Assembly (NCBI GenBank): GCA_963849335.1
Contig: CAWKGZ010000003.1
Span: forward strand, 1,132,022 to 1,196,021
Direction of reading: 5' to 3'
Source: an uncultured Chloroflexia bacterium
Lineage (GTDB): Bacteria > Chloroflexota > Anaerolineae > Anaerolineales > UBA4823
Length of the DNA: 64,000 bases
The notes beneath the pieces were generated by a model. The model was not told the DNA's origin and ran no database searches. It saw only the letters and a list, made by a program, of their open reading frames with translations. Positions 17,930 through 52,186 of the stretch are shown in pieces. Position 1 is the stretch's first letter. Each line of letters begins with the position of its first letter. A program made the translations under genes and the position numbers.

Positions 17930-18001
17930 TAGCGGGGCTCAGATTCGAACTGAGGACCTTCGGGTTATGAGCCCGACGAGCTGCCACTGCTCCACCCCGC
18001 A
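17930..18001 (-). tRNA. tRNA-Met (anticodon CAU), initiator type; no encoded CCA
   Basis: The reverse strand folds as U-GCGGGG UG GAGC AGUGGCA GCUC G UCGGG CUCAUAA CCCGA AGGUC CUCAG UUCGAAU CUGAG CCCCGC-U A. It has three consecutive G-C pairs closing the anticodon stem and an unpaired 1:72 position, both hallmarks of bacterial initiator tRNA. The anticodon is at 17969-17967. Confidence 0.85.
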
Positions 18002-18077
18002 TCGATTGTCTTGCCCGGTCACCGAGCGGGCGAATTATAGCACGCTGCCGCAGGCGCGTCAAGCGCGCTATTTGGTT

Positions 18078-18467
18078 TTACGGCTGGTCGACGAACAAGG
18101 ACAGCCACACCTGCCAGTTTTGGATCACTTCCGGGGTGGGGGTGGGCGTCGGTTCCGGCGTGGGGATGCTGCCCGGCACTTCGATGGGCACGATCAGCGT
18201 GTCGCCTTCCTTCACTTCGTGCTGGAAAGTGTAAGCCCAGATCAGAACTGCCTCTTCGGCGGTCGCTTTTGCCACCGCGGTCTCATAGCTGGTTTGCGTG
18301 CTGTACAGATCGGTCACCTGCGCGCTGACCTGGTCATGTTCGGAGGTCAGGCGGCGCAGCTCTGCCATGCGGGTATTGAAATCCATCACCATCAGCGCCA
18401 ACAGTGCAAACCCGATCATCAGCACACCCAACCGCCAGCCGCTTCGCCATGTGTTCATAGATGTCAT
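18078..18467 (-). CDS. Small bitopic membrane protein with FtsB/DivIC-like (septum formation initiator) layout and a Pro/Thr linker
   Basis: From ATG 18467: one TM segment (WRLGVLMIGFALLALMVM), then a coiled-coil stretch (RMAELRRLTSEHDQVSAQVTDLY), then ...EVKEGDTLIVPIEVPGSIPTPEPTPTPTPE. The call rests on architecture only. Confidence 0.5.
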   Translation of the reverse strand: MTSMNTWRSGWRLGVLMIGFALLALMVMDFNTRMAELRRLTSEHDQVSAQVTDLYSTQTSYETAVAKATAEEAVLIWAYTFQHEVKEGDTLIVPIEVPGSIPTPEPTPTPTPEVIQNWQVWLSLFVDQP

Positions 18468-18515
18468 CTTACCGCAGCCTTTTTGAATCCGCAAGAGGAA
18501 AGAATATTTTCACAT

Positions 18516-18710
18516 AGCTAACAAGATCTGCCCGGCTCTTAAGACCGAAGGTAAAGACCCTAAGAACTATCCGAGATTTCATACATAGCTGTCATTGCGA
18601 GGAGCATTGCGACGAAGCAATCCCTTCAGACCAAGGCTGAGATTGCTTCGCAAAAACCGCTCGCAATGACAATTGGGAGAATATTCGGAAAGATCCTTAG
18701 GGTCTGGGTG
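18516..18710. repeat. MITE-like ~190-bp dispersed repeat, copy 1 (contains an 80-nt nested hairpin at 18591-18670)
   Basis: It shares AGCTAACAAGAT, CTGCCCGGCTCTTAAGACC and GAGGAGC-N-GCGACGAAGCAATCCCTTCA-N-CAAGG-TGAGATTGCTTCGCAAAAACCGC with the reverse complement of 46766-46947. Internal arms are GTCATTGCGAG/CTCGCAATGAC and GAAGCAATC/GATTGCTTC. Confidence 0.7.
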
Positions 18711-18844
18711 AGCAAAGTTTTGTCAGACCTCTTACATACCTTTGCAACCTCCATGCCAGTTGGCACGTCCCATGCATCCTTCTACCAGATAATGGCGTTG
18801 CAATTACCAATTAACAAATCCCCGCGGGATGCGGGGATCGGGTG

Positions 18845-18928
<84 letters not shown>

Positions 18929-44042: not shown

Positions 44043-45579
44043 TTATTTAGCGTAGTCGATGGCCCGCGTTTCGCGGATCACCGTCACCTTGATCTGCCCG
44101 GGGTAGTGCATCGATTCTTCGATCTTCTTGGCGATGTCGCGCGCCAGGCGGATCGAGTCCAGGTCGTCGATCTCCTCGGGGCGGACGAAGATGCGTACCT
44201 CACGCCCGGCCTGCAGGGCGAAGGATTGGTTGACGCCTTTGAAGGAATTGGCCAGGTCTTCCAGGCGCGCACCCGCTTGATGTACTGCTCCAGGCTCTCA
44301 CGGCGGGCGCCGGGACGAGCGCCGGAGATGGCGTCGGCGGCCTCGGCGATAGCCGCCTCGACCGACTCCTGCTCGATCTCATGGTGGTGCGAGGCGATGG
44401 CATTGACCACCTGCGGGTTCACCCCGTAGCGCTTGGCAAAATCGGCGCCCAGCAGGGCGTGTGTGCCTTCCATGTTGTGGTCCATCGCCTTGCCCAGGTC
44501 GTGCAGCAGCCCGGCGGCCTTGGAAATTTCGATATTGGCACCTAGCTCGGCGGCGATCACCGCCGACAGGTGGGCGACCTCCACGGCATGCTGCAGCTGG
44601 TTTTGTCCGTAGGAGGTGCGGAATTTCAGCCGCCCGAGCATCTTGATCACCTCGGGGTGCAGCCCGGGTACGCCGGCATCAAAGGCTGCTTGTTCGCCGG
44701 CATCGGCGATCACTTCTGTCGACTTCCTTCTGCTCATTCTTGAGCACCTTTTCGACGTGCGCTGGGTGGATGCGCCCATCCAGCACCAGCTTGGCCAGCG
44801 CCCGGCGGGCAACTTCGCGGCGCACCGGGTCGAAGCAGGAGATGGTCACCGCTTCGGGGGTGTCATCGACGATCACGTCGACGCCGGCGGCCTGCTCGAA
44901 GGCATGGATGTTGCGCCCGTTGCGCCCGATGATGCGCCCCTTCATCTCGTCGGAGGGGATGGTCACGGTGGAGGTGGTTACCTCAGAGACGTGCTCGGAG
45001 GCGACGCGCTGGATGGCGGTGGTGATGATCTCGCGGGCCCGGCGATCGCCTTCTTCCTGCGCCTCGGCTTCGACCTGGCGGATGATGCGCGCCATATCGT
45101 TGCGGGCTGTCCTTCTCCACCTCAGCCAGCAGCAGCGCCGCGGGCTTCTTCGTTGGTCAGCTGGGAGATGCGCTGCAGCTCCGTCCAGCTGGTCTGCGTG
45201 CAGTTTCTCGATCTCGTTGGCGCGCTTATCCACCAAACTCTGGCGCTTGTTCAAGCGTCTGCTCGCGCTTTTCCAGCCGGTCGATGCGCAGGTCTAGCTC
45301 TTCACGGCGTTTTTGCAGGCGGTCTTCCTCGCGGGTAAGGTCGCCGCGCCGCCGGGTGACCTCTGCCTCGGCCTGCTGGCGGATCTGCAGGGCTTTATCC
45401 TTGGCCTGCAGCTCGGTATCTTTGGCCTTTTCTTCGGCGGCGTTCAGGATATCGGTAGTCTTTATTTGCAGTCTCTCCTGAGCCTGTTTTTGAAGAAAGT
45501 AGTGGATGGCATAGCCTGCAGCCCCGCCGATGAGCAGGCTGATTATGCCGGTTACAATCGCTATTAGTGGTCCATTCAT
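44043..45579 (-). CDS. rny: Ribonuclease Y; at least six frame disruptions in this assembly
   Basis: N-terminal TM ([21 protein letters not shown]), then a coiled coil. The KH domain reads [36 protein letters not shown]. The HD domain reads [17 protein letters not shown]...[14 protein letters not shown]...[10 protein letters not shown]. The C-terminal end, ...[53 protein letters not shown], is found only after frame changes at ~45235, ~45185, ~45150, ~45112, ~44720 and ~44268. Confidence 0.85.
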
Positions 45580-46217
45580 CAGTTTTCATCCTCAATCGTC
45601 AAAGTCTCCTGCCAGACCCGTTCGAGCACCGGTTCGATCACGGTGTAGCCAAAGCCACGGCGGGCCAGAAAACCGGCCAGTTTTCGCCGGAAGTCGGGTT
45701 TGGACAGGCCTTGCAGCTTGCGCCGGTACTTGAGCGCTGCCTGAGCTGCCAGCTCTTCTTCATCCAGCTCGGAGAGTGCAGATTCGATCGCCTCGTCGTC
45801 CAGGCCTTTCTGGCGCAGCTCCATGCTCAGTAGGCGCCGCCCGCGCGGGCGGAATTCAGAGCGGTTGTCCACCCAGGTCTGGGCGAACTGTCCGTCGTTG
45901 ACCAGGCCGCTGTGCCCCAGGCGCTCGAGCACCTGCTCGATCACCTCAGGGTCATAGCCATGCTTCTCCAGGTTCTTGCGCACCTCGGCGCTGGAGCGGG
46001 GACGGTAATTCAGCAGGTGGAGTGCTTTCTGGTAAGCAGCTTCGTAGCTGTCGTCGCCTTTGAGCTGAGCGATCTTCTCGTCGCTGAGCTGTTGGCCGAT
46101 CTGCAACCAGGCGGCGGTGATGCGCGCCAGCCCGAAGGCGTATTCCCCATCCAGGTAAATGTTCACCCGCTGGAGGTTGCGTTTCTGCACCTTCATGGCG
46201 GTGACCGTCCCGCTCAT
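45579..46217 (-). CDS. recX: RecX family regulatory protein
   Basis: From MSGTVTAMKVQKRNLQRVNIYLDGEYAFGL (ATG 46217, GGGAG 7 nt upstream). It has three-helix repeats ...ALHLLNYRPRSSAEVRKNLEKHGYDPEVIEQVLERL...GLVNDGQFAQTWV... typical of RecX. The stop overlaps the rny start region. Confidence 0.8.
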   Translation of the reverse strand: MSGTVTAMKVQKRNLQRVNIYLDGEYAFGLARITAAWLQIGQQLSDEKIAQLKGDDSYEAAYQKALHLLNYRPRSSAEVRKNLEKHGYDPEVIEQVLERLGHSGLVNDGQFAQTWVDNRSEFRPRGRRLLSMELRQKGLDDEAIESALSELDEEELAAQAALKYRRKLQGLSKPDFRRKLAGFLARRGFGYTVIEPVLERVWQETLTIEDEN

Positions 46218-46229
46218 CCCACACTCCCA

Positions 46230-46264
46230 AAATAAAAAACCGCGACCCATCTCACAGGCCACGG
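46230..46264 (-). terminator. Intrinsic-terminator-like hairpin plus U-tract, directly upstream of the recX ribosome-binding site
   Basis: The minus-strand RNA reads CCGUGGCC-UGUGAGAUG-GGUCGCGG-UUUUUUAUUUU. The 8-bp stem includes one U.G and one G.U pair. These would be C.A mismatches on the other strand, so the structure is strand-specific. Confidence 0.6.
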
Positions 46265-46733
46265 CCAGGTACAATGCTTACTGAGCTCGGTTAACGTTCG
46301 GTGTCGGTTGCGGGCAGGGCGCTGCGGCTCGACCGGAAAGGTGTAGCCGGCAGCACGCCTGCTAAGGGCTTTGCTGCAGGATCACGACCGTCTGGCGGTG
46401 GGCCAGCCGGGGGTGGGGAATGAATGAAAGAGGATGCTTCACACCGTACTCGTGATCTACCTTCTGCTAAAAAATCTACCCGATTGGATGAGGGTCAAAT
46501 CGATATACCGGCTCATCGCCAACAACAGGTTCACTCGACACTGAACTACGTGGTATCTCAGGACAATCGTATCCAAAACCGTGGCTGCGCTCGAAAAAGC
46601 AATGACTGATAACGTACCGCGCAGCGCCTGGGTTTCCGCTGGTCGGGTTAGGACTTTATCTGCCATCCCGGCACTTGCGGAGCCTTTCAAGTGCTCTCTA
46701 CCGGGGTAGAAAGCAGCGCATGTCTGACAAGAT
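46230..46733 (-). ncRNA. Candidate ~0.5-kb non-coding transcript or regulatory leader of recX-rny (unclassified)
   Basis: Neither strand has a credible ORF. The region is bounded by a TGTATAAT box (46747-46740) and the terminator hairpin (46264-46230). Local hairpins include GCACUUG-N10-CAAGUGC and GCUGCGC-N29-GCGCAGC. No match by eye to RNase P, tmRNA, SRP or T-box cores. Confidence 0.3.
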
Positions 46734-46739
46734 CGATTG

Positions 46740-46747
46740 ATTATACA
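46740..46747 (-). promoter_or_regulatory. Extended -10 promoter element TGTATAAT (minus strand)
   Basis: The reverse complement of ATTATACA at 46740-46747. There is no good -35, which is acceptable for TGn-extended -10 promoters. The predicted start is near 46733. Confidence 0.35.
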
Positions 46748-46765
46748 ATAAAATGGGGAATCACG

Positions 46766-46947
46766 CGGCGGTTTTTGCGAAGCAATCTCAACCTTGGCAA
46801 TGAAGGGATTGCTTCGGCGCAAAGAACGCTCCTCCAAAGAAACAGTTCGCCAGCTGTCGCTGCGATGCCAGACCCTAAGGGTCTTAAGAGCCGGGCAGGT
46901 TTTGTTAGTGGTTCTTAGGGTCTCTAAGCTCAGAAATCTTGTTAGCT
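46766..46947. repeat. MITE-like ~190-bp dispersed repeat, copy 2 (inverted relative to copy 1 at 18516-18710)
   Basis: The reverse complement shares AGCTAACAAGAT, CTGCCCGGCTCTTAAGACC, GAGGAGCGTT...GCGCCGAAGCAATCCCTTCATTGCCAAGGTTGAGATTGCTTCGCAAAAACCGC with copy 1. It also contains AGACCCTAAGGGTCT and CTTAGGGTCT palindromic cores. Confidence 0.7.
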
Positions 46948-47033
46948 CCTATCACCCTGGCGCAATAATCGTGCTACAATCCAGATATGCGATCATAGAA
47001 TAACTAGCTTTATCGATCTGTGGAGAGAAAAAC

Positions 47034-47903
47034 ATGGGCGAAACAATCGAATTAGGCAGCCTTTTCCAGACAGTCACCCGCGACCTGGTGAAAAATCAGC
47101 AGACCCTGAACCAGGCGGATGGTTACAACCAGAACCATGGCGATAACATGGTGCGTACGTTTCAAACCATCACCAAGGCAGTGAAGTTAAAGCAGAAGCA
47201 GGGCAGCTCGGACAGCGCGGCGTTGGCTTATGCCGCCAAACGGCTGACCAAGAGCAGCACGAGCCAATCGGCGCAGCTCTACGCCCAGGGGCTTACCCGG
47301 GCGGCGACCCAGCTCCAGGGTAAGCAGGTCGACCAGCGCACCGGTATGCAGCTATTACAGACGCTGATCGGCGGCGGGCAGGCTACCTCGGGCAGCTCGC
47401 AGGCTCTCCAAGGCGGTGACATGCTAAGCAGCCTGTTAGGTGGGCTAGCAGGCAGTTCCGCATCCCAGGGGAACGAACCCACCCAGGGCGGCGACCTGCT
47501 GAGCAGCCTGCTGGGCGGCTTGGCAGGTGGCGCTGAACAGCAAGGCGCTTCCTCGCAGGGCGGCGACTTACTGGGCAGCTTATTGGGCGGCATGGCGGGC
47601 GGCACGCAGCAGCAATCCCAGCAAAGCAGCGCTTCGTCTCAGGGCGGAGACCTGCTGGGCAGCCTGTTGGGCGGCTTGACTGGTGGATCAGGCTCCGGCT
47701 CCGGGCTGCAGGACGGTCTGGACCTGGGCGATCTGCTGTCCGTGGGCATGGCCTATATGCAGTATAAGCAGCAGGGCAAAAGCACGTTCGAGGCGCTGAT
47801 CCAGGCGTTCATGAAGATGAGCGGCATGGGCGGCTCGAAGGATCGCACCCAATCCACGCAGGTGGTGGTGAGCTCGTTTTTGCAGGCGCTGGGAGCGGGC
47901 TAG
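47034..47903 (+). CDS. Hypothetical protein with four tandem QGGDLL(S/G)SLLGG(L/M)AGG repeats in a Gly/Ser/Gln-rich low-complexity core
   Basis: 289-aa ORF with GGAGAGAAAAAC upstream of the ATG. It has a structured-looking N-terminus (ELGSLFQTVTRDLVKNQQTLNQADGYNQNHGDNMVRTFQTITKAV) and C-terminus (LLSVGMAYMQYKQQGKSTFEALIQAFMKMSG). The repeats lie at roughly aa 125-215. Confidence 0.6.
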   Translation: MGETIELGSLFQTVTRDLVKNQQTLNQADGYNQNHGDNMVRTFQTITKAVKLKQKQGSSDSAALAYAAKRLTKSSTSQSAQLYAQGLTRAATQLQGKQVDQRTGMQLLQTLIGGGQATSGSSQALQGGDMLSSLLGGLAGSSASQGNEPTQGGDLLSSLLGGLAGGAEQQGASSQGGDLLGSLLGGMAGGTQQQSQQSSASSQGGDLLGSLLGGLTGGSGSGSGLQDGLDLGDLLSVGMAYMQYKQQGKSTFEALIQAFMKMSGMGGSKDRTQSTQVVVSSFLQALGAG

Positions 47904-48047: not shown

Positions 48048-48106
48048 CTCGGCAGGTTATTTTATACTTTTTCATCCTAATGCAGCACATTCACACCGGA
48101 GGCAGT

Positions 48107-51100
48107 ATGTACATTAATAATTGGCACGACAAATCATTGATTAAGACCTTGCTATTATCCTTTATAAGCCTGCTTCTGATCACAGGCCTGCTGATGGGGG
48201 ACACCAACCTTGCTGCGGCGCGCTCGGAGAAATCGGTGGTCATCCCCGGCGCGACGATCAGCACCGATACCACCTGGACGCTGGCAAACAGCCCCTATGT
48301 GATCACCGGCTGGGTGTACGTCAATGCCGGGGTCACGCTTACCATCGAGCCCGGCGTGGTGGTGAAATTCAGCGGTACTATTGGGATGGTCAACTATGGC
48401 ACACTGGATGTGAACGGCGTCGACGGCACGCCGGTGATCTTCACCGAGTACCGGGACGACACCGCCGGCGGGGATACGAATGGCGATTTGGGTGCAACTT
48501 CACCCGCGCCCGGCGCGTGGACGGGAATGTACGTGACCAACAACGCCGACGCATTTTTTGAGTATACCGAGATCCGCTACGGCGGCGCGGTGTTCTTTAA
48601 CGGCGATAGTACTGCGCCGCATTACGGCAACCTGCGCAAGGATGGCGCGGGTACACTGACCCTCGACCACACCGTGGTCACCCAATCCTTGAGCTGCGGG
48701 GTGCGCTTTGACACGTCCAATGGGGTGAACACCATCGCGGATAGCACCTTCAGTTTCAACAGCGGGTATGGTGTTTGCCTGAACAACCCGGTCAACACCA
48801 TCTCATTCTCCGGTTCTACCTTCACCCAGAATGCACCCTGGTCCATCTACACCACCCCCTTCAGCTCCGGCTTCTCCATCCCGCCCGACAACATCCTGGA
48901 CAAACCCATCTTTGTAGATACCGGCAGTATGGCAGTGGATTCAACCTGGAGCCGGCAGGTCTACCTGATCAACAATCTCACCGTCGACACCGGGATGACG
49001 CTGACCATCCCCGCCGGCGCGGTGGTCAAATTCAACGGTCCGACCAGCCTGGCTGTAAACGGCACGCTGGAGGTGAACGGCAACGATAGCAGCCCAGTCA
49101 TTTTCACCGATTTGCGCGATGACACCGCCGGCGGCGACTCCAACGGCGATGCCGGTGGCTCACTCCCCACGCCCGGTGGCTGGAACGGGATGTACGTGAG
49201 GAACAACGCCAACGCATCCTTCGAGTATGCCGAGATCCGCTACGGCGGGGCGGTGTTCTTTAACGGTGATAGTACTGCGCCGCATTACGGCAACCTGCGC
49301 AAGGATGGTGCGGGTACACTGACCCTCGACCATACAAGGATCACACAATCCTTGAGCTGCGGGTTGCGCCTGGATGGCACCAGCGGTGTGAATACCATCA
49401 CCGACAGCACCTTCGACCTGAATAGCGGCTATGGGGTATGCCTGAACAACGCAGGCAACACCGTCTCTTTCTCCGGCTCGCTCTTCTCACAGAACGGACC
49501 CTGGTCCATCTACACCACGCCCTTCAGCTCGGGCTTCTCCATCCCGCCCGACAACATCCTGGACAAACCCATCTTTGTAGATACCGGCAGCATGGCAGTG
49601 GATTCAACCTGGAGCCGGCAGGTCTACCTGATCAACAATCTCACCGTCGACACCGGGATAACGCTGACCATCCCCGCCGGCGCGGTGGTCAAATTCAACG
49701 GTTCGACCAGCATGGCTGTAAACGGCACGCTGGATGTGAACGGGACCGATGGCACCCCGGTCATTTTCACTGAGTTGCGCGATGACACCGCCGGCGGCGA
49801 TACCAATGGCGATGGCGGTGACACCCTGCCTGCGCCCGGCGGCTGGAACGGGATGTACGTGAGGAACAACGCCAACGCATCCTTCGAGTATGCCGAGATC
49901 CGCTACGGCGGCGCGGTGTTCTTTAACGGCGATAGTACTGCGCCGCATTACGGCAACCTGCGCAAGGATGGCGCGGGTACACTGACCCTCGACCACACCG
50001 TGGTCACCCAATCCTTGAGCTGCGGGGTGCGCTTTGACACGTCCAATGGGGTGAACACCATCGCGGATAGCACCTTCAGTTTCAACAGCGGGTATGGTGT
50101 TTGCCTGAACAACCCGGTCAACACCATCTCATTCTCCGGTTCTACCTTCACCCAGAATGCACCCTGGTCCATCTACACCACCCCCTTCAGCTCCGGCTTC
50201 TCCATCCCGCCCGACAACATCCTGGACAAACCCATCTTTGTAGATACCGGCAGTATGGCAGTGGATTCAACCTGGAGCCGGCAGGTCTACCTGATCAACA
50301 ATCTCACCGTCGACACCGGGATGACGCTGACCATCCCCGCCGGCGCGGTGGTCAAATTCAACGGTTCGACCAGCCTGGCTGTAAACGGCACGCTGGAGGT
50401 GAACGGGACCGATGGCACCCCGGTCATTTTCACCGATTTGCGCGATGACACCGCCGGCGGCGATACCAATGGCGATGGCGGCTCCACCCTGCCTGCGCCC
50501 GGCGGCTGGAACGGGATGTACGTGGGGAACAACGCCAACGCATCCTTCGAGTATGCCGAGATCCGCTACGGCGGGGCGGTGTTCTTTAACGGTGATACTA
50601 CTGCGCCGCATTACGGCAACCTGCGCAAGGATGGCGCAGGCACGCTGACCCTTGACCACACCGTGGTCACCCAATCCTTGAACTGCGGCGTGCGCTTTGA
50701 CTCGTCCAATGGTGTGAACACCATCGCGGATAGCACCTTCAGTTTCAACAGCGGGTATGGTGTTTGCCTGAACAACCCGGTCAACACCATCTCATTCTCC
50801 GGTTCTACCTTTGCCCAGAATGCACCCTGGTCCATCTACACCACCCCCCTCAGCTCCGGCTTCTCCATCCCGCCCGACAACATCCTGGACAAACCTATCT
50901 TTGTAGATACCGGCAGCATGGCGGTGGATTCAACCTGGAGCCGACAGGTGTATGTGACCAATAGCTTTACGGTCGACAGCGGATATTCTTTGACCATCCC
51001 GGCTGGGGCTGTACTCAAATTCATTGGTATGACTGGCATCACCGCAGCTGGCACGCTGGATGTTAATGGAACGGAGGCGCTGCCCGTCATCATCACCGAG

Positions 51101-52186
51101 CTCCGCGATGACACCGCCGGCGGCGATTCGAATGGCGATAACAATTCCACCTTGCCTGCGGCTGGCGCCTGGACTGGACTTTATGTGCCCGGTGGTAATG
51201 CCAGCTTTACCTATGCCGAGATCCGCTATGGGGGCGGCGTGTTTTTTAATGGCGATAGCACTGCCTGCCACTATGGCAACCTGCGCAAGGGTGGGACGGG
51301 AACTTTAACCACCGATCACCTGACCTCCATGTACAGCGGCTGCAGCGGGCTGTGGCTGACCAGCACAGTCACCCAGGCCGAGATCGTGGATTCGCACTTC
51401 CTGAACAACAACGGCTGGGGGGTGCTGTTCCAATCCTCCACCAGCGACCTGCTGTTGCAGGGAACCCTGATCGACCACAACACCACCGGCGGGCTGCACA
51501 TCAACAATCCGGGTGGGGTCACGGAGATCATGCGCAATACCATCGTCGCCAACGCCGGCGCCGGGATCCAGGTTGTCAACGAGACCGCCGCGCTCATCGG
51601 CGGTACGGATGTGGATGGCAATAACCTGTATGGCAACCAGTTTTTCCAGCTCCAGAATTTGAATGCCACATTCAGCGTGGATGCCAGCCACAACTGGTGG
51701 GGGATCAACCCGCCCTTCACCGCAGAGATTTCTGGATTGGTAGATTCCACCTCGCCGTTGACTGCCCCTGCCGTCAATGCGCCTGTCTACCTGGCGGATA
51801 TCGCCCTCTCGGCGGACAGCATCCCGGCGAAGGCCATGCTCAACGAAACAGTCGTTTACACGATCGATATCGCCAACCAGGGGCCGCGCGAAGCCTACCA
51901 CCTGGTGATCACTGCCAGCGTGCCAGACCCGGCTGAGCTGCTCACGGTCAGCGGCACTGGCTGGGACTGCAGCGTGGATGGCAACCAGTTTAGCTGCTAT
52001 CTGCCTTACCTGGCAGTCGATGGGACAGCGGCGATCAGCTTCTCGATGCGCTCCGCGGTCGCTTCCCCAATCAGCTTTGACGTCTCGATCAGCCAGGCGA
52101 ACAACGATCCTGACGCAGAAAATAGCCGGCTGACCATCGATACAACGATCGTCATGCAGGTCAGGCTGCCTTTGATCACCAAGTAA
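48107..52186 (+). CDS. Large secreted or surface protein: signal anchor, five tandem right-handed beta-helix modules, further beta-helix region, C-terminal DUF11-like domain
   Basis: From MYINNWHDKSLIKTLLLSFISLLLITGLLMG (ATG 48107, RBS GGAGG). The modules (~221 aa) each contain ...TLTIPAGAVVKFNG...LRDDTAGGDTNGDG...EYAEIRYGG...NSGYGVCLNN... The C-terminal region, AKAMLNETVVYTIDIANQGPREAYHLVITASVP, resembles the DUF11 conserved repeat domain. Confidence 0.85.
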   Translation: MYINNWHDKSLIKTLLLSFISLLLITGLLMGDTNLAAARSEKSVVIPGATISTDTTWTLANSPYVITGWVYVNAGVTLTIEPGVVVKFSGTIGMVNYGTLDVNGVDGTPVIFTEYRDDTAGGDTNGDLGATSPAPGAWTGMYVTNNADAFFEYTEIRYGGAVFFNGDSTAPHYGNLRKDGAGTLTLDHTVVTQSLSCGVRFDTSNGVNTIADSTFSFNSGYGVCLNNPVNTISFSGSTFTQNAPWSIYTTPFSSGFSIPPDNILDKPIFVDTGSMAVDSTWSRQVYLINNLTVDTGMTLTIPAGAVVKFNGPTSLAVNGTLEVNGNDSSPVIFTDLRDDTAGGDSNGDAGGSLPTPGGWNGMYVRNNANASFEYAEIRYGGAVFFNGDSTAPHYGNLRKDGAGTLTLDHTRITQSLSCGLRLDGTSGVNTITDSTFDLNSGYGVCLNNAGNTVSFSGSLFSQNGPWSIYTTPFSSGFSIPPDNILDKPIFVDTGSMAVDSTWSRQVYLINNLTVDTGITLTIPAGAVVKFNGSTSMAVNGTLDVNGTDGTPVIFTELRDDTAGGDTNGDGGDTLPAPGGWNGMYVRNNANASFEYAEIRYGGAVFFNGDSTAPHYGNLRKDGAGTLTLDHTVVTQSLSCGVRFDTSNGVNTIADSTFSFNSGYGVCLNNPVNTISFSGSTFTQNAPWSIYTTPFSSGFSIPPDNILDKPIFVDTGSMAVDSTWSRQVYLINNLTVDTGMTLTIPAGAVVKFNGSTSLAVNGTLEVNGTDGTPVIFTDLRDDTAGGDTNGDGGSTLPAPGGWNGMYVGNNANASFEYAEIRYGGAVFFNGDTTAPHYGNLRKDGAGTLTLDHTVVTQSLNCGVRFDSSNGVNTIADSTFSFNSGYGVCLNNPVNTISFSGSTFAQNAPWSIYTTPLSSGFSIPPDNILDKPIFVDTGSMAVDSTWSRQVYVTNSFTVDSGYSLTIPAGAVLKFIGMTGITAAGTLDVNGTEALPVIITELRDDTAGGDSNGDNNSTLPAAGAWTGLYVPGGNASFTYAEIRYGGGVFFNGDSTACHYGNLRKGGTGTLTTDHLTSMYSGCSGLWLTSTVTQAEIVDSHFLNNNGWGVLFQSSTSDLLLQGTLIDHNTTGGLHINNPGGVTEIMRNTIVANAGAGIQVVNETAALIGGTDVDGNNLYGNQFFQLQNLNATFSVDASHNWWGINPPFTAEISGLVDSTSPLTAPAVNAPVYLADIALSADSIPAKAMLNETVVYTIDIANQGPREAYHLVITASVPDPAELLTVSGTGWDCSVDGNQFSCYLPYLAVDGTAAISFSMRSAVASPISFDVSISQANNDPDAENSRLTIDTTIVMQVRLPLITK
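48230..51330 (+). repeat. Intragenic tandem repeat, period 663 bp, about 4.7 copies (outer copies diverged)
   Basis: CTACCTGATCAACAATCTCACCGTCGACACCGGGAT recurs at 48961, 49624 and 50287 (spacing 663), with a diverged copy near 50950. The stretch 48571-49039 is identical to 49897-50365. Confidence 0.9.

Follow-up and report, generated by a model that had tools for sequence, protein, structure and literature searches.

What does the half kilobase between a promoter-like box and the genes recX and rny encode in an uncultured Chloroflexia bacterium? In the 64,000 nucleotides analyzed here (contig CAWKGZ010000003.1 of assembly GCA_963849335.1, positions 1,132,022 to 1,196,021; hereafter, the window), recX, the gene for the RecA inhibitor RecX, and rny, the gene for RNase Y, are read from the minus strand. 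An earlier note, made from the sequence alone, had seen upstream of them a promoter-to-terminator unit and proposed that it was a new conditional-termination leader or noncoding RNA (ncRNA). Based on the comparative data reported here, we are highly confident that the stretch specifies a real, conserved, structured RNA on the minus strand, and we consider it probable, with distinctly more reserve, that this RNA is a cis-acting conditional-termination leader (attenuator) of recX-rny in which a large, long-range fold decides read-through. The earlier proposal is thereby supported and is sharpened by a candidate long-range antiterminator; sequence alone does not settle the choice between a leader and an independent RNA.

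The unit is delimited by three features, given here, as throughout, in window coordinates:

46740 to 46782, minus strand: putative promoter region, comprising an A-rich tract, a conserved GCGCG block and TGTATAAT; conservation begins at 46776-46782.

46229 to 46269, minus strand: terminator-like hairpin, with its 5' arm at 46266-46257, its 3' arm at 46247-46238 and a U-tract at 46239-46229; identified by scan, alignment and a predicted energy of -15 to -25 kcal/mol.

46215 to 46228, minus strand: recX ribosome-binding site GGGAG and start codon ATG; read from the sequence, with a layout that is kept in relatives.

Direct reading of the minus strand placed TGTATAAT at 46747-46740 and showed that the terminator stem consists of CCGTGGCC (46264-46257) and, after a 9-nt spacing, GGTCGCGG (46247-46240). 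This hairpin, CCGUGGCC-N9-GGUCGCGG (46264-46240), lies about 475 nt past TGTATAAT, extends to 46266-46238 and, together with the U-tract TTTTTTATTTT (also given as UUUUUUAUUUU; 46239-46229), covers 46266-46229. The recX Shine-Dalgarno (SD) sequence GGGAG (46228-46224) and the ATG (46217-46215) follow directly after the U-tract. The coordinates first proposed, from box to terminator, were right to within 1-2 nt; the U-tract had been ended at 46230, 1 nt from its actual end at 46229, and its distance to the recX ATG is 11 nt rather than 13 nt. Two of the eight stem pairs are indeed of the G.U type (U.G and G.U). Independently, a terminator scan returned the hairpin at 46266-46238 with 13 pairs, 6 GC pairs and a 3-nt loop; the GC-rich core stem of 8-10 bp with the U-tract directly after it has the form of an intrinsic terminator. 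In the 16 sequences compared below, this stem (helix 14) is 96.9% paired, and its only changes are one-sided exchanges of G.U and G-C.

The TATAAT within TGTATAAT is perfect, and the whole box is invariant in 16 of 16 sequences; of the extended -10 element originally suggested, the box stands, but the canonical extended spacing does not, since the TG abuts TATAAT directly instead of forming TGnTATAAT. A two-hexamer sigma-70 promoter scan of 45500-47500, with a tool whose coverage does not extend to the promoter rules of Chloroflexota, gave no match, and no -35 element (TTGACA, 16-18 nt spacing) is recognizable. Judged only by the -10 spacing, transcription would start near 46733-46734. A LexA/SOS box was considered for the promoter and set aside, no palindrome of the GAAC-N4-GTTC type being visible by eye (no formal scan was made). 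No other conserved promoter was found before recX, and there is no space for one between the U-tract and the SD sequence; therefore, expression of recX-rny must pass through the leader unit, unless a promoter for rny lies inside recX.

No Rfam family matches the stretch. Rfam 15 (4227 models, among them T-box, known riboswitches, RNase P, tmRNA, SRP, 6S, OLE, GOLLD, ROOL, raiA and rne5) yielded only two tRNAs in the window at the gathering threshold, both elsewhere; at E<=10, the region 46100-47100 gave only three chance-level matches of 10-14 bits, and the leaders of ten homologous loci gave no match. This agrees with the earlier note, which had been unable to place the element by eye. Full-text literature searches turned up no account of a Chloroflexi RNA that precedes recX or rny.

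In relatives, the sequence before recX is strongly conserved, and the stretch precedes recX-rny in at least 13 distinct Anaerolineales metagenome lineages. One metagenome scan and twelve exact-protein look-ups provided contigs whose RecX is 52-95% identical to that of the window; the RecX homologues that their sources name are labeled Anaerolineales or Chloroflexi, and the alignment set comprises 16 distinct sequences of about 10 lineages from Anaerolineales metagenomes. Both blastn and nhmmer align the whole stretch 46776-46218 across this set. The leaders are 58-93% identical to that of the window, compared with 66-91% for the recX coding sequence, and the 200 nt upstream of the promoter fall to the random level of about 50%, conservation setting in sharply about 35 nt before the -10 box. 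In all relatives down to 66% RecX identity, recX-rny is preceded by a gap of 600-800 nt with no separate gene called in it, and the order of U-tract, GGAG and ATG is kept. The neighbors on the far side differ by lineage (acyltransferase, isochorismatase, META, MamF-like, glyoxalase, MraZ); recX-rny is constant, and the element lies upstream of it in the same orientation in every lineage with upstream sequence at hand. Three wider searches added no members: a RecX peptide scan of genome contigs confirmed no relative, a degenerate DNA pattern that proved too GC-rich gave at least 120 chance matches in high-GC genomes, none of which fit the nhmmer profile, and a scan of viral contigs with GATWACRA gave no match and was uninformative, since the pattern misfits most members.

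The conserved stretch is non-coding. Open reading frames (ORFs) are present, for example one of 126 aa at 46457-46837 (minus strand), but none is conserved among the relatives, in which the stop-free stretches differ, and no local ORF has a Pfam match above cut-off. Substitutions show no 3-nt periodicity, mismatches being spread evenly over the codon phases (in L004, for example, 56/55/56), and relatives often differ in the leader by indels of 1-2 nt; between the window and its closest relative, L011, the leader has zero indels. No protein gene could be recovered from the stretch, and in every relative the gene callers left it without a separate gene. A leader peptide was also rejected: the sole conserved start-like codon (A/UUG near 46721) has no SD sequence, and the short frames differ between lineages. 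In one public annotation (protein P0020, L008:3202-4044), RecX is extended to 280 aa from a start 67 codons upstream, inside the leader; this start is probably mis-called.

Covariation supports a fold for the whole element, and a bias in G.U pairs favors the minus strand, as the two G.U pairs of the terminator had first suggested. RNAalifold applied to 15 sequences gave 78 pairs, 32 of them with compensatory changes. A model of 97 pairs was then assembled from the base-pair probabilities of individually folded sequences, averaged over 10 lineages; an all-against-all search for covarying column stacks had been swamped by G.U noise and was replaced by these averages. In the 16-sequence alignment, 86.6% of the cells of the model are standard pairs, compared with 35-43% after the 3' partners have been shifted by 1-3 columns; 35 of the 97 pairs have changed on both sides, and none of 500 shuffles reached any of five measures. 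On the antisense strand only 79.4% of cells pair, and G.U makes up 10.4% of the sense-strand cells. The minimum free energy (MFE) of the window sequence is unexceptional against shuffles (z = -1.4); the evidence for the fold is therefore comparative and not thermodynamic. The elements of the model are as follows:

46692 to 46715, minus strand: P1 hairpin (UGCUUUCUAC / GUAGAGAGCA); mean pair probability 0.79 over 10 lineages, 91% of cells paired.

46635 to 46681, minus strand: P2 hairpin, conserved at its base (UCCGC / GCGGA) and variable, with covariation, toward its apex; 88% of cells paired, 4 pairs compensatory.

46584 to 46625, minus strand: P3 hairpin GCUGCGC / GCGCAGC, whose 28-nt loop (46618-46591) is conserved; 98% of cells paired in helix 5, which is mostly invariant, with 1 compensatory pair.

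46536 to 46570, minus strand: 5' strands of the long-range helices LR1 (46570-46566), LR2 (46561-46557, CUGAG) and LR3 (46546-46536, GUUCAGUGUCG); 82-95% paired, with 2, 2 and 4 compensatory pairs.

46307 to 46535, minus strand: central domain (about 230 nt) with H4-H8; from alignment, pair probabilities and folding.

46517-46487, minus strand: H4 hairpin, within the central domain.

46457-46450 with 46387-46380, minus strand: H5 helix GAUCACGA/UCGUGAUC, enclosing a CU-rich tract (46434-46409) and H6.

46406-46392, minus strand: H6 hairpin, inside H5.

46379-46359, minus strand: H7, within the central domain.

46354-46321, minus strand: H8 hairpin, strongly covarying, within the central domain.

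46271 to 46306, minus strand: 3' strands of LR3 (46306-46296, CGACACCGAAC), LR2 (46285-46281, CUCAG) and LR1 (46275-46271); from alignment and pair probabilities.

Four of the seven pairs of P1 are compensatory (for example, UUUCUAC/GUAGAGA versus CGGAUAC/GUAUCAG), P2 forms in every lineage when folded alone, and the variable hairpins (the tip of P2 and H8) re-form with different sequences in every lineage. The inner details of the central domain are less certain, the MAFFT alignment being imprecise in variable hairpins. The tract enclosed by H5 (46409-46434, minus strand; UCCUCUUUCAUUCAUUCCCCACCCCC) is CU-rich and purine-poor and remains pyrimidine-rich in most lineages while its sequence drifts; it holds anti-SD-like CCUC/CUCC motifs for which no consistent pairing partner was found. 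Sequestration of the SD sequence was examined separately: the recX SD is predicted to pair with CUCC of the P2 5' strand in three lineages and with other partners elsewhere, and translational control is not claimed.

A feature not described before is a candidate second partner for the terminator:

46573 to 46586, minus strand: box AGCCACGGUUUUGG (GGCCACGG in most relatives), proposed 5' strand of the antiterminator, complementary to 46269-46257.

The complement of this box, about 320 nt farther downstream, includes the 5' arm of the terminator, and the arm at 46266-46257 is common to both pairings. The helix between box and arm continues the LR1-LR3 stack that closes the central domain; its mean pair probability is 0.60, and it is 92.7% paired in the 16 sequences. 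Compensatory changes occur in L025 (C-G to U-A; box GGUCACGG, arm CCGUGACC) and, at the outer end, in L020/L022 (G-C to A-U). As modeled, the pairing of box with arm and the terminator hairpin are mutually exclusive, and their predicted energies are similar in every lineage (-15 to -25 kcal/mol for the terminator versus -18 to -23 kcal/mol for the antiterminator duplex). Equilibrium folding of the full-length leaders placed 13 of 16 in the antiterminator state (probability of at least 0.76) and 3 of 16 in the terminator state; for the leader of the window, the antiterminator probability was 0.99. Since the two pairings are exclusive and have similar predicted stabilities, the leader is most likely a conditional transcription attenuator. 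P3 might be extended by 3 bp (46631-46628 with 46581-46579), which would take in part of the box; as this extension could hold that part back, the arrangement would have the classical layout of three competing pairings. The earlier view that every recX-rny mRNA reads through the hairpin is correct insofar as there is no room for a promoter after it; however, it is too simple, since the conserved upstream box can sequester the 5' arm. The UGGN bulge of a T-box leader is not conserved: Rfam gave no T-box match, and the UGG after the box is replaced by UUG, UAG or UGA in L025, L147, L019 and L020.

It can be proposed that, in a clade of Anaerolineales, a conserved promoter belonging to the unit drives transcription of the region from 46733 to 46229 (minus strand) as a structured 5' leader of recX-rny of about 505 nt, which would fold into the 5' hairpins P1-P3 followed by the central domain of about 230 nt closed by LR1-LR3. 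The box (GGCCACGG type, 46586-46573) would then pair with the 5' arm of the terminator as the outermost long-range helix. When this long-range fold forms, RNA polymerase would read into recX-rny; when the box is withheld (because P3 is extended, a factor is bound, or the 5' part is cleaved or degraded), the terminator would form and an RNA of about 0.5 kb would be released. By analogy with the leaders of E. coli rne and B. subtilis rny (see below), feedback from RNase Y or from general RNA-decay capacity is a plausible guess for the effector. Taken a step further, and offered here as no more than tentative, the element could represent a previously undescribed class of sensor RNA of about 500 nt that sets the level of RNase Y together with that of the RecA inhibitor RecX via a domain-closing, long-range antiterminator; its input would be RNase Y or RNA-decay activity, or else a metabolite or protein bound by P1-P3 or the central domain.

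Several points weigh against attenuation. The data show that the stretch is conserved and non-coding, on which strand and how it folds, and that both alternative pairings exist; transcription, the promoter, the start site, termination, read-through, switching and the effector are all steps that we infer, and no ligand or protein partner can be named from the sequence. The comparison covers only about 10 independent lineages. A shuffle control of the antiterminator alone was not significant, most positions of the helix never vary and only 2 are compensatory; because antiterminator and terminator are both nearly invariant, covariation cannot show that both form in vivo. Equilibrium folding leaves cotranscriptional kinetics aside, and an antiterminator formed over 320 nt would be unusual. 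In addition, rny carries about 7 frameshifting indels in the window, so that the regulated gene may be defective here or the assembly locally faulty. Finally, the 5' and central domains are larger and more conserved than a simple attenuator needs, which could mean that the RNA has a function of its own.

Four shorter leaders from more distant loci, all of which retain recX-rny, bear on the role of the element. In L148 (GCA_020723385.1, L148:1658-3645; RecX 64% identical), the order is recA, a gap of 383 nt, recX and rny, and within the gap there are a GGCCAC box, a long-range helix (AAUAUUU/AAAUAUU) and a perfect CAGCCGUGGCC terminator; the presence of a shorter version between recA and recX, inside the operon, points to a role in cis. 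In L006 (RecX 52% identical, 30% GC), there is a TGTATAAT-like box, but the leader has no sequence similarity to that of the window, and its MFE fold brings the 5' arm of the terminator into a long-range helix of about 30 bp; L007 has the terminator only. Membership of L148 and L005-L007 was rejected, since neither nhmmer nor a covariance model (CM) detected homology and only the architecture of box, long-range helix and terminator is alike; their leaders are analogous or possibly homologous. The CM used (R1), which represents the 5' domain only, matched once per locus but not in L148 or L005-L007, and it revealed no second copy in the window. A terminator before recX with a long-range competitor thus seems to be older than the 5' domain (P1-P3) and the dedicated promoter, which are specific to the clade of the window.

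In all four of these loci, the sequence of the hairpin before the recX SD (CAGCCG-n-GGCC ... GGCUG with a U-rich tail) is kept at 52-64% RecX identity and 30% GC; this conservation exceeds the need of a generic terminator.

One alternative is an independent, stable ncRNA gene of about 0.5 kb, with its own promoter, an efficient terminator and a function of its own, for example as a protein partner or decoy; leaky termination would then yield recX-rny expression as a by-product, in the manner of 6S RNA and the gene after it. Such a gene would account for the perfect, invariant -10 box and the textbook terminator, for a size, number of helices and set of conserved loops beyond the needs of known attenuators, and for the finding that, at short distances, the leader is as conserved as coding sequence. 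We nevertheless consider it unlikely, since the unit is joined directly to the recX SD in every case and recX-rny has no other conserved promoter, since a competing partner of the terminator arm is conserved and the terminator is predicted to be absent from most leaders at equilibrium, and since in L148 the shorter version lies inside recA-recX and lacks its own promoter. The single copy per locus, with no second copy in the window, likewise argues against it.

Somewhat less likely again is a constitutive processing or stability leader. The interrupted duplex of about 30 bp formed by the box and LR1-LR3 would be a substrate of RNase III or another RNase; once cut there, the RNA would lose its 5' part, and the terminator-like hairpin would remain beside the SD sequence as a protective 5' stem-loop, an arrangement comparable to rRNA processing stalks and the pnp and rnc leaders. 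No part of the fold is better supported than the long-range helices, the equivalent helix in L006 is nearly continuous, and the CAGCCGnGGCC hairpin sequence is conserved beyond the needs of a generic terminator; however, processing explains neither the conserved U-tract nor why the 3' arm of the terminator is kept complementary to the same 5' arm with a balanced energy, and it is compatible with a switch rather than exclusive of it. Neither the independent RNA nor the processing leader is mutually exclusive with an attenuator.

The weakest alternative, a degraded or mis-assembled protein gene or conserved regulatory DNA such as a promoter with no RNA-structure function, is highly improbable: the many single-base indels of the adjoining rny, the overlapping 126-aa ORF and the 67-aa extension of RecX in P0020 might suggest a gene, but the 1-2-nt indels between close relatives, the lack of a conserved ORF, codon periodicity, Pfam match or similarity to RecA, and the indel-free alignment of the leader to L011 oppose it, and neither compensatory changes nor a G.U strand bias is expected of conservation at the DNA level.

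The genes downstream of the RNA are as follows:

45579 to 46217, minus strand: recX, 212 aa, intact, the first gene after the RNA; from the ORF list, with Pfam RecX domains in the homologues and best matches named Anaerolineales.

44046 to 45579, minus strand: rny (RNase Y), the second gene, broken here by about 7 single-base indels; from the ORFs and alignment to relatives.

In the window, rny falls into four segments that occupy three reading frames; comparison with L010 and L011 resolved the approximately 7 indels into about five insertions between about 45254 and 44716 and deletions at about 44266 and 44183. There are no such indels in recX or the 520-nt leader, and an intact Rny of 509-520 aa is present in all relatives. 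The gene is either a recent pseudogene in the window or the product of local assembly errors. No recA was found anywhere in the window, nor does it lie upstream in the clade of the window; tblastn of the L148 RecA, run in search of a remnant, gave only a chance match elsewhere in the window.

The surroundings of the unit are not shared with its relatives. Just upstream of the promoter, a repeat segment (46775-46908), described as MITE-like in the earlier note, has a second, inverted copy at 18518-18653, near the tRNA genes at 17930-18928; the copies match at 90-93% identity over 48 and 29 nt, and relatives lack the repeat before the leader. Within this repeat element, next to the A-rich tract of the promoter, lies an imperfect 19-nt inverted repeat (46778-46816; CGAAGCAATCTCAACCTTG / CAATGAAGGGATTGCTTCG, 79% complementary), which is accompanied by no U-tract on either strand. 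The divergent neighbor on the plus strand (47034-47903) encodes a low-complexity protein with repeated GGDLL(S/G)SLLGG motifs and is followed on the plus strand at 48080-52186 by a gene for a protein of 1368 aa, whose repeat units, each of about 220 aa, have nearly identical DNA sequences; neither is kept beside the leader in relatives.

RNase Y initiates most mRNA decay in bacteria that lack RNase E. To our knowledge, control of its level is known only for Bacillus subtilis, where it acts on mRNA stability; we know of no transcription-level autoregulatory loop for this enzyme, and of almost no RNA biology on record for the phylum Chloroflexota. If the attenuator reading is correct, a choice between terminator and antiterminator before rny would be a different, transcription-level solution to the problem of setting RNase Y, the element would join the short list of very large structured bacterial RNAs, and it would be a clear example of an antiterminator formed over about 320 nt. 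The box and the arm provide a testable handle on the coupling of RecX and RNase Y expression.

Among known systems, the very large RNAs OLE, GOLLD, ROOL, raiA and HEARO resemble the recX-rny leader in their several hundred nucleotides, many covarying helices, conserved loops and narrow phylogenetic range, but there is no Rfam match to any of them and, unlike the leader, they are not known to us to be coupled to a downstream SD sequence via a terminator and antiterminator. Expression of Escherichia coli recX by about 10% terminator read-through, as cited in PMC3542578, is a further parallel. The two systems share a terminator hairpin just upstream of recX, and in L148 the element likewise lies between recA and recX; the clade of the window differs in having no recA upstream and in having its own promoter, a structured RNA of about 500 nt and a competing antiterminator.

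In E. coli, RNase E is autoregulated through its own mRNA leader, the rne 5' untranslated region (UTR; Rfam rne5, RF00040). In B. subtilis, RNase Y autoregulates via its own mRNA, in which the 164-nt rny 5' UTR and the early coding region are cut by RNase Y (PMC10303841). Like the RNA described here, these are long leaders upstream of the gene for the main decay-initiating endoribonuclease; however, they act on mRNA stability and not on termination, no sequence or structure homology was found with Rfam, and here recX sits between the leader and rny. With leaders that choose between a terminator and an antiterminator (T-box leaders and the metabolite riboswitches of Gram-positive bacteria), the element shares its position as a sense 5' leader, a covarying fold, a terminator-like hairpin directly before the gene, a conserved predicted alternative partner for the 5' arm of that hairpin and balanced predicted energies. 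It differs from riboswitch and attenuator leaders in its length of about 505 nt, two to four times the typical value, and in an antiterminator that is long-range (about 320 nt) and closes a whole domain instead of forming a local hairpin. By these comparisons, the closest systems would be, functionally, the terminator/antiterminator leaders and, biologically, the autoregulatory leaders of major endoribonuclease genes.

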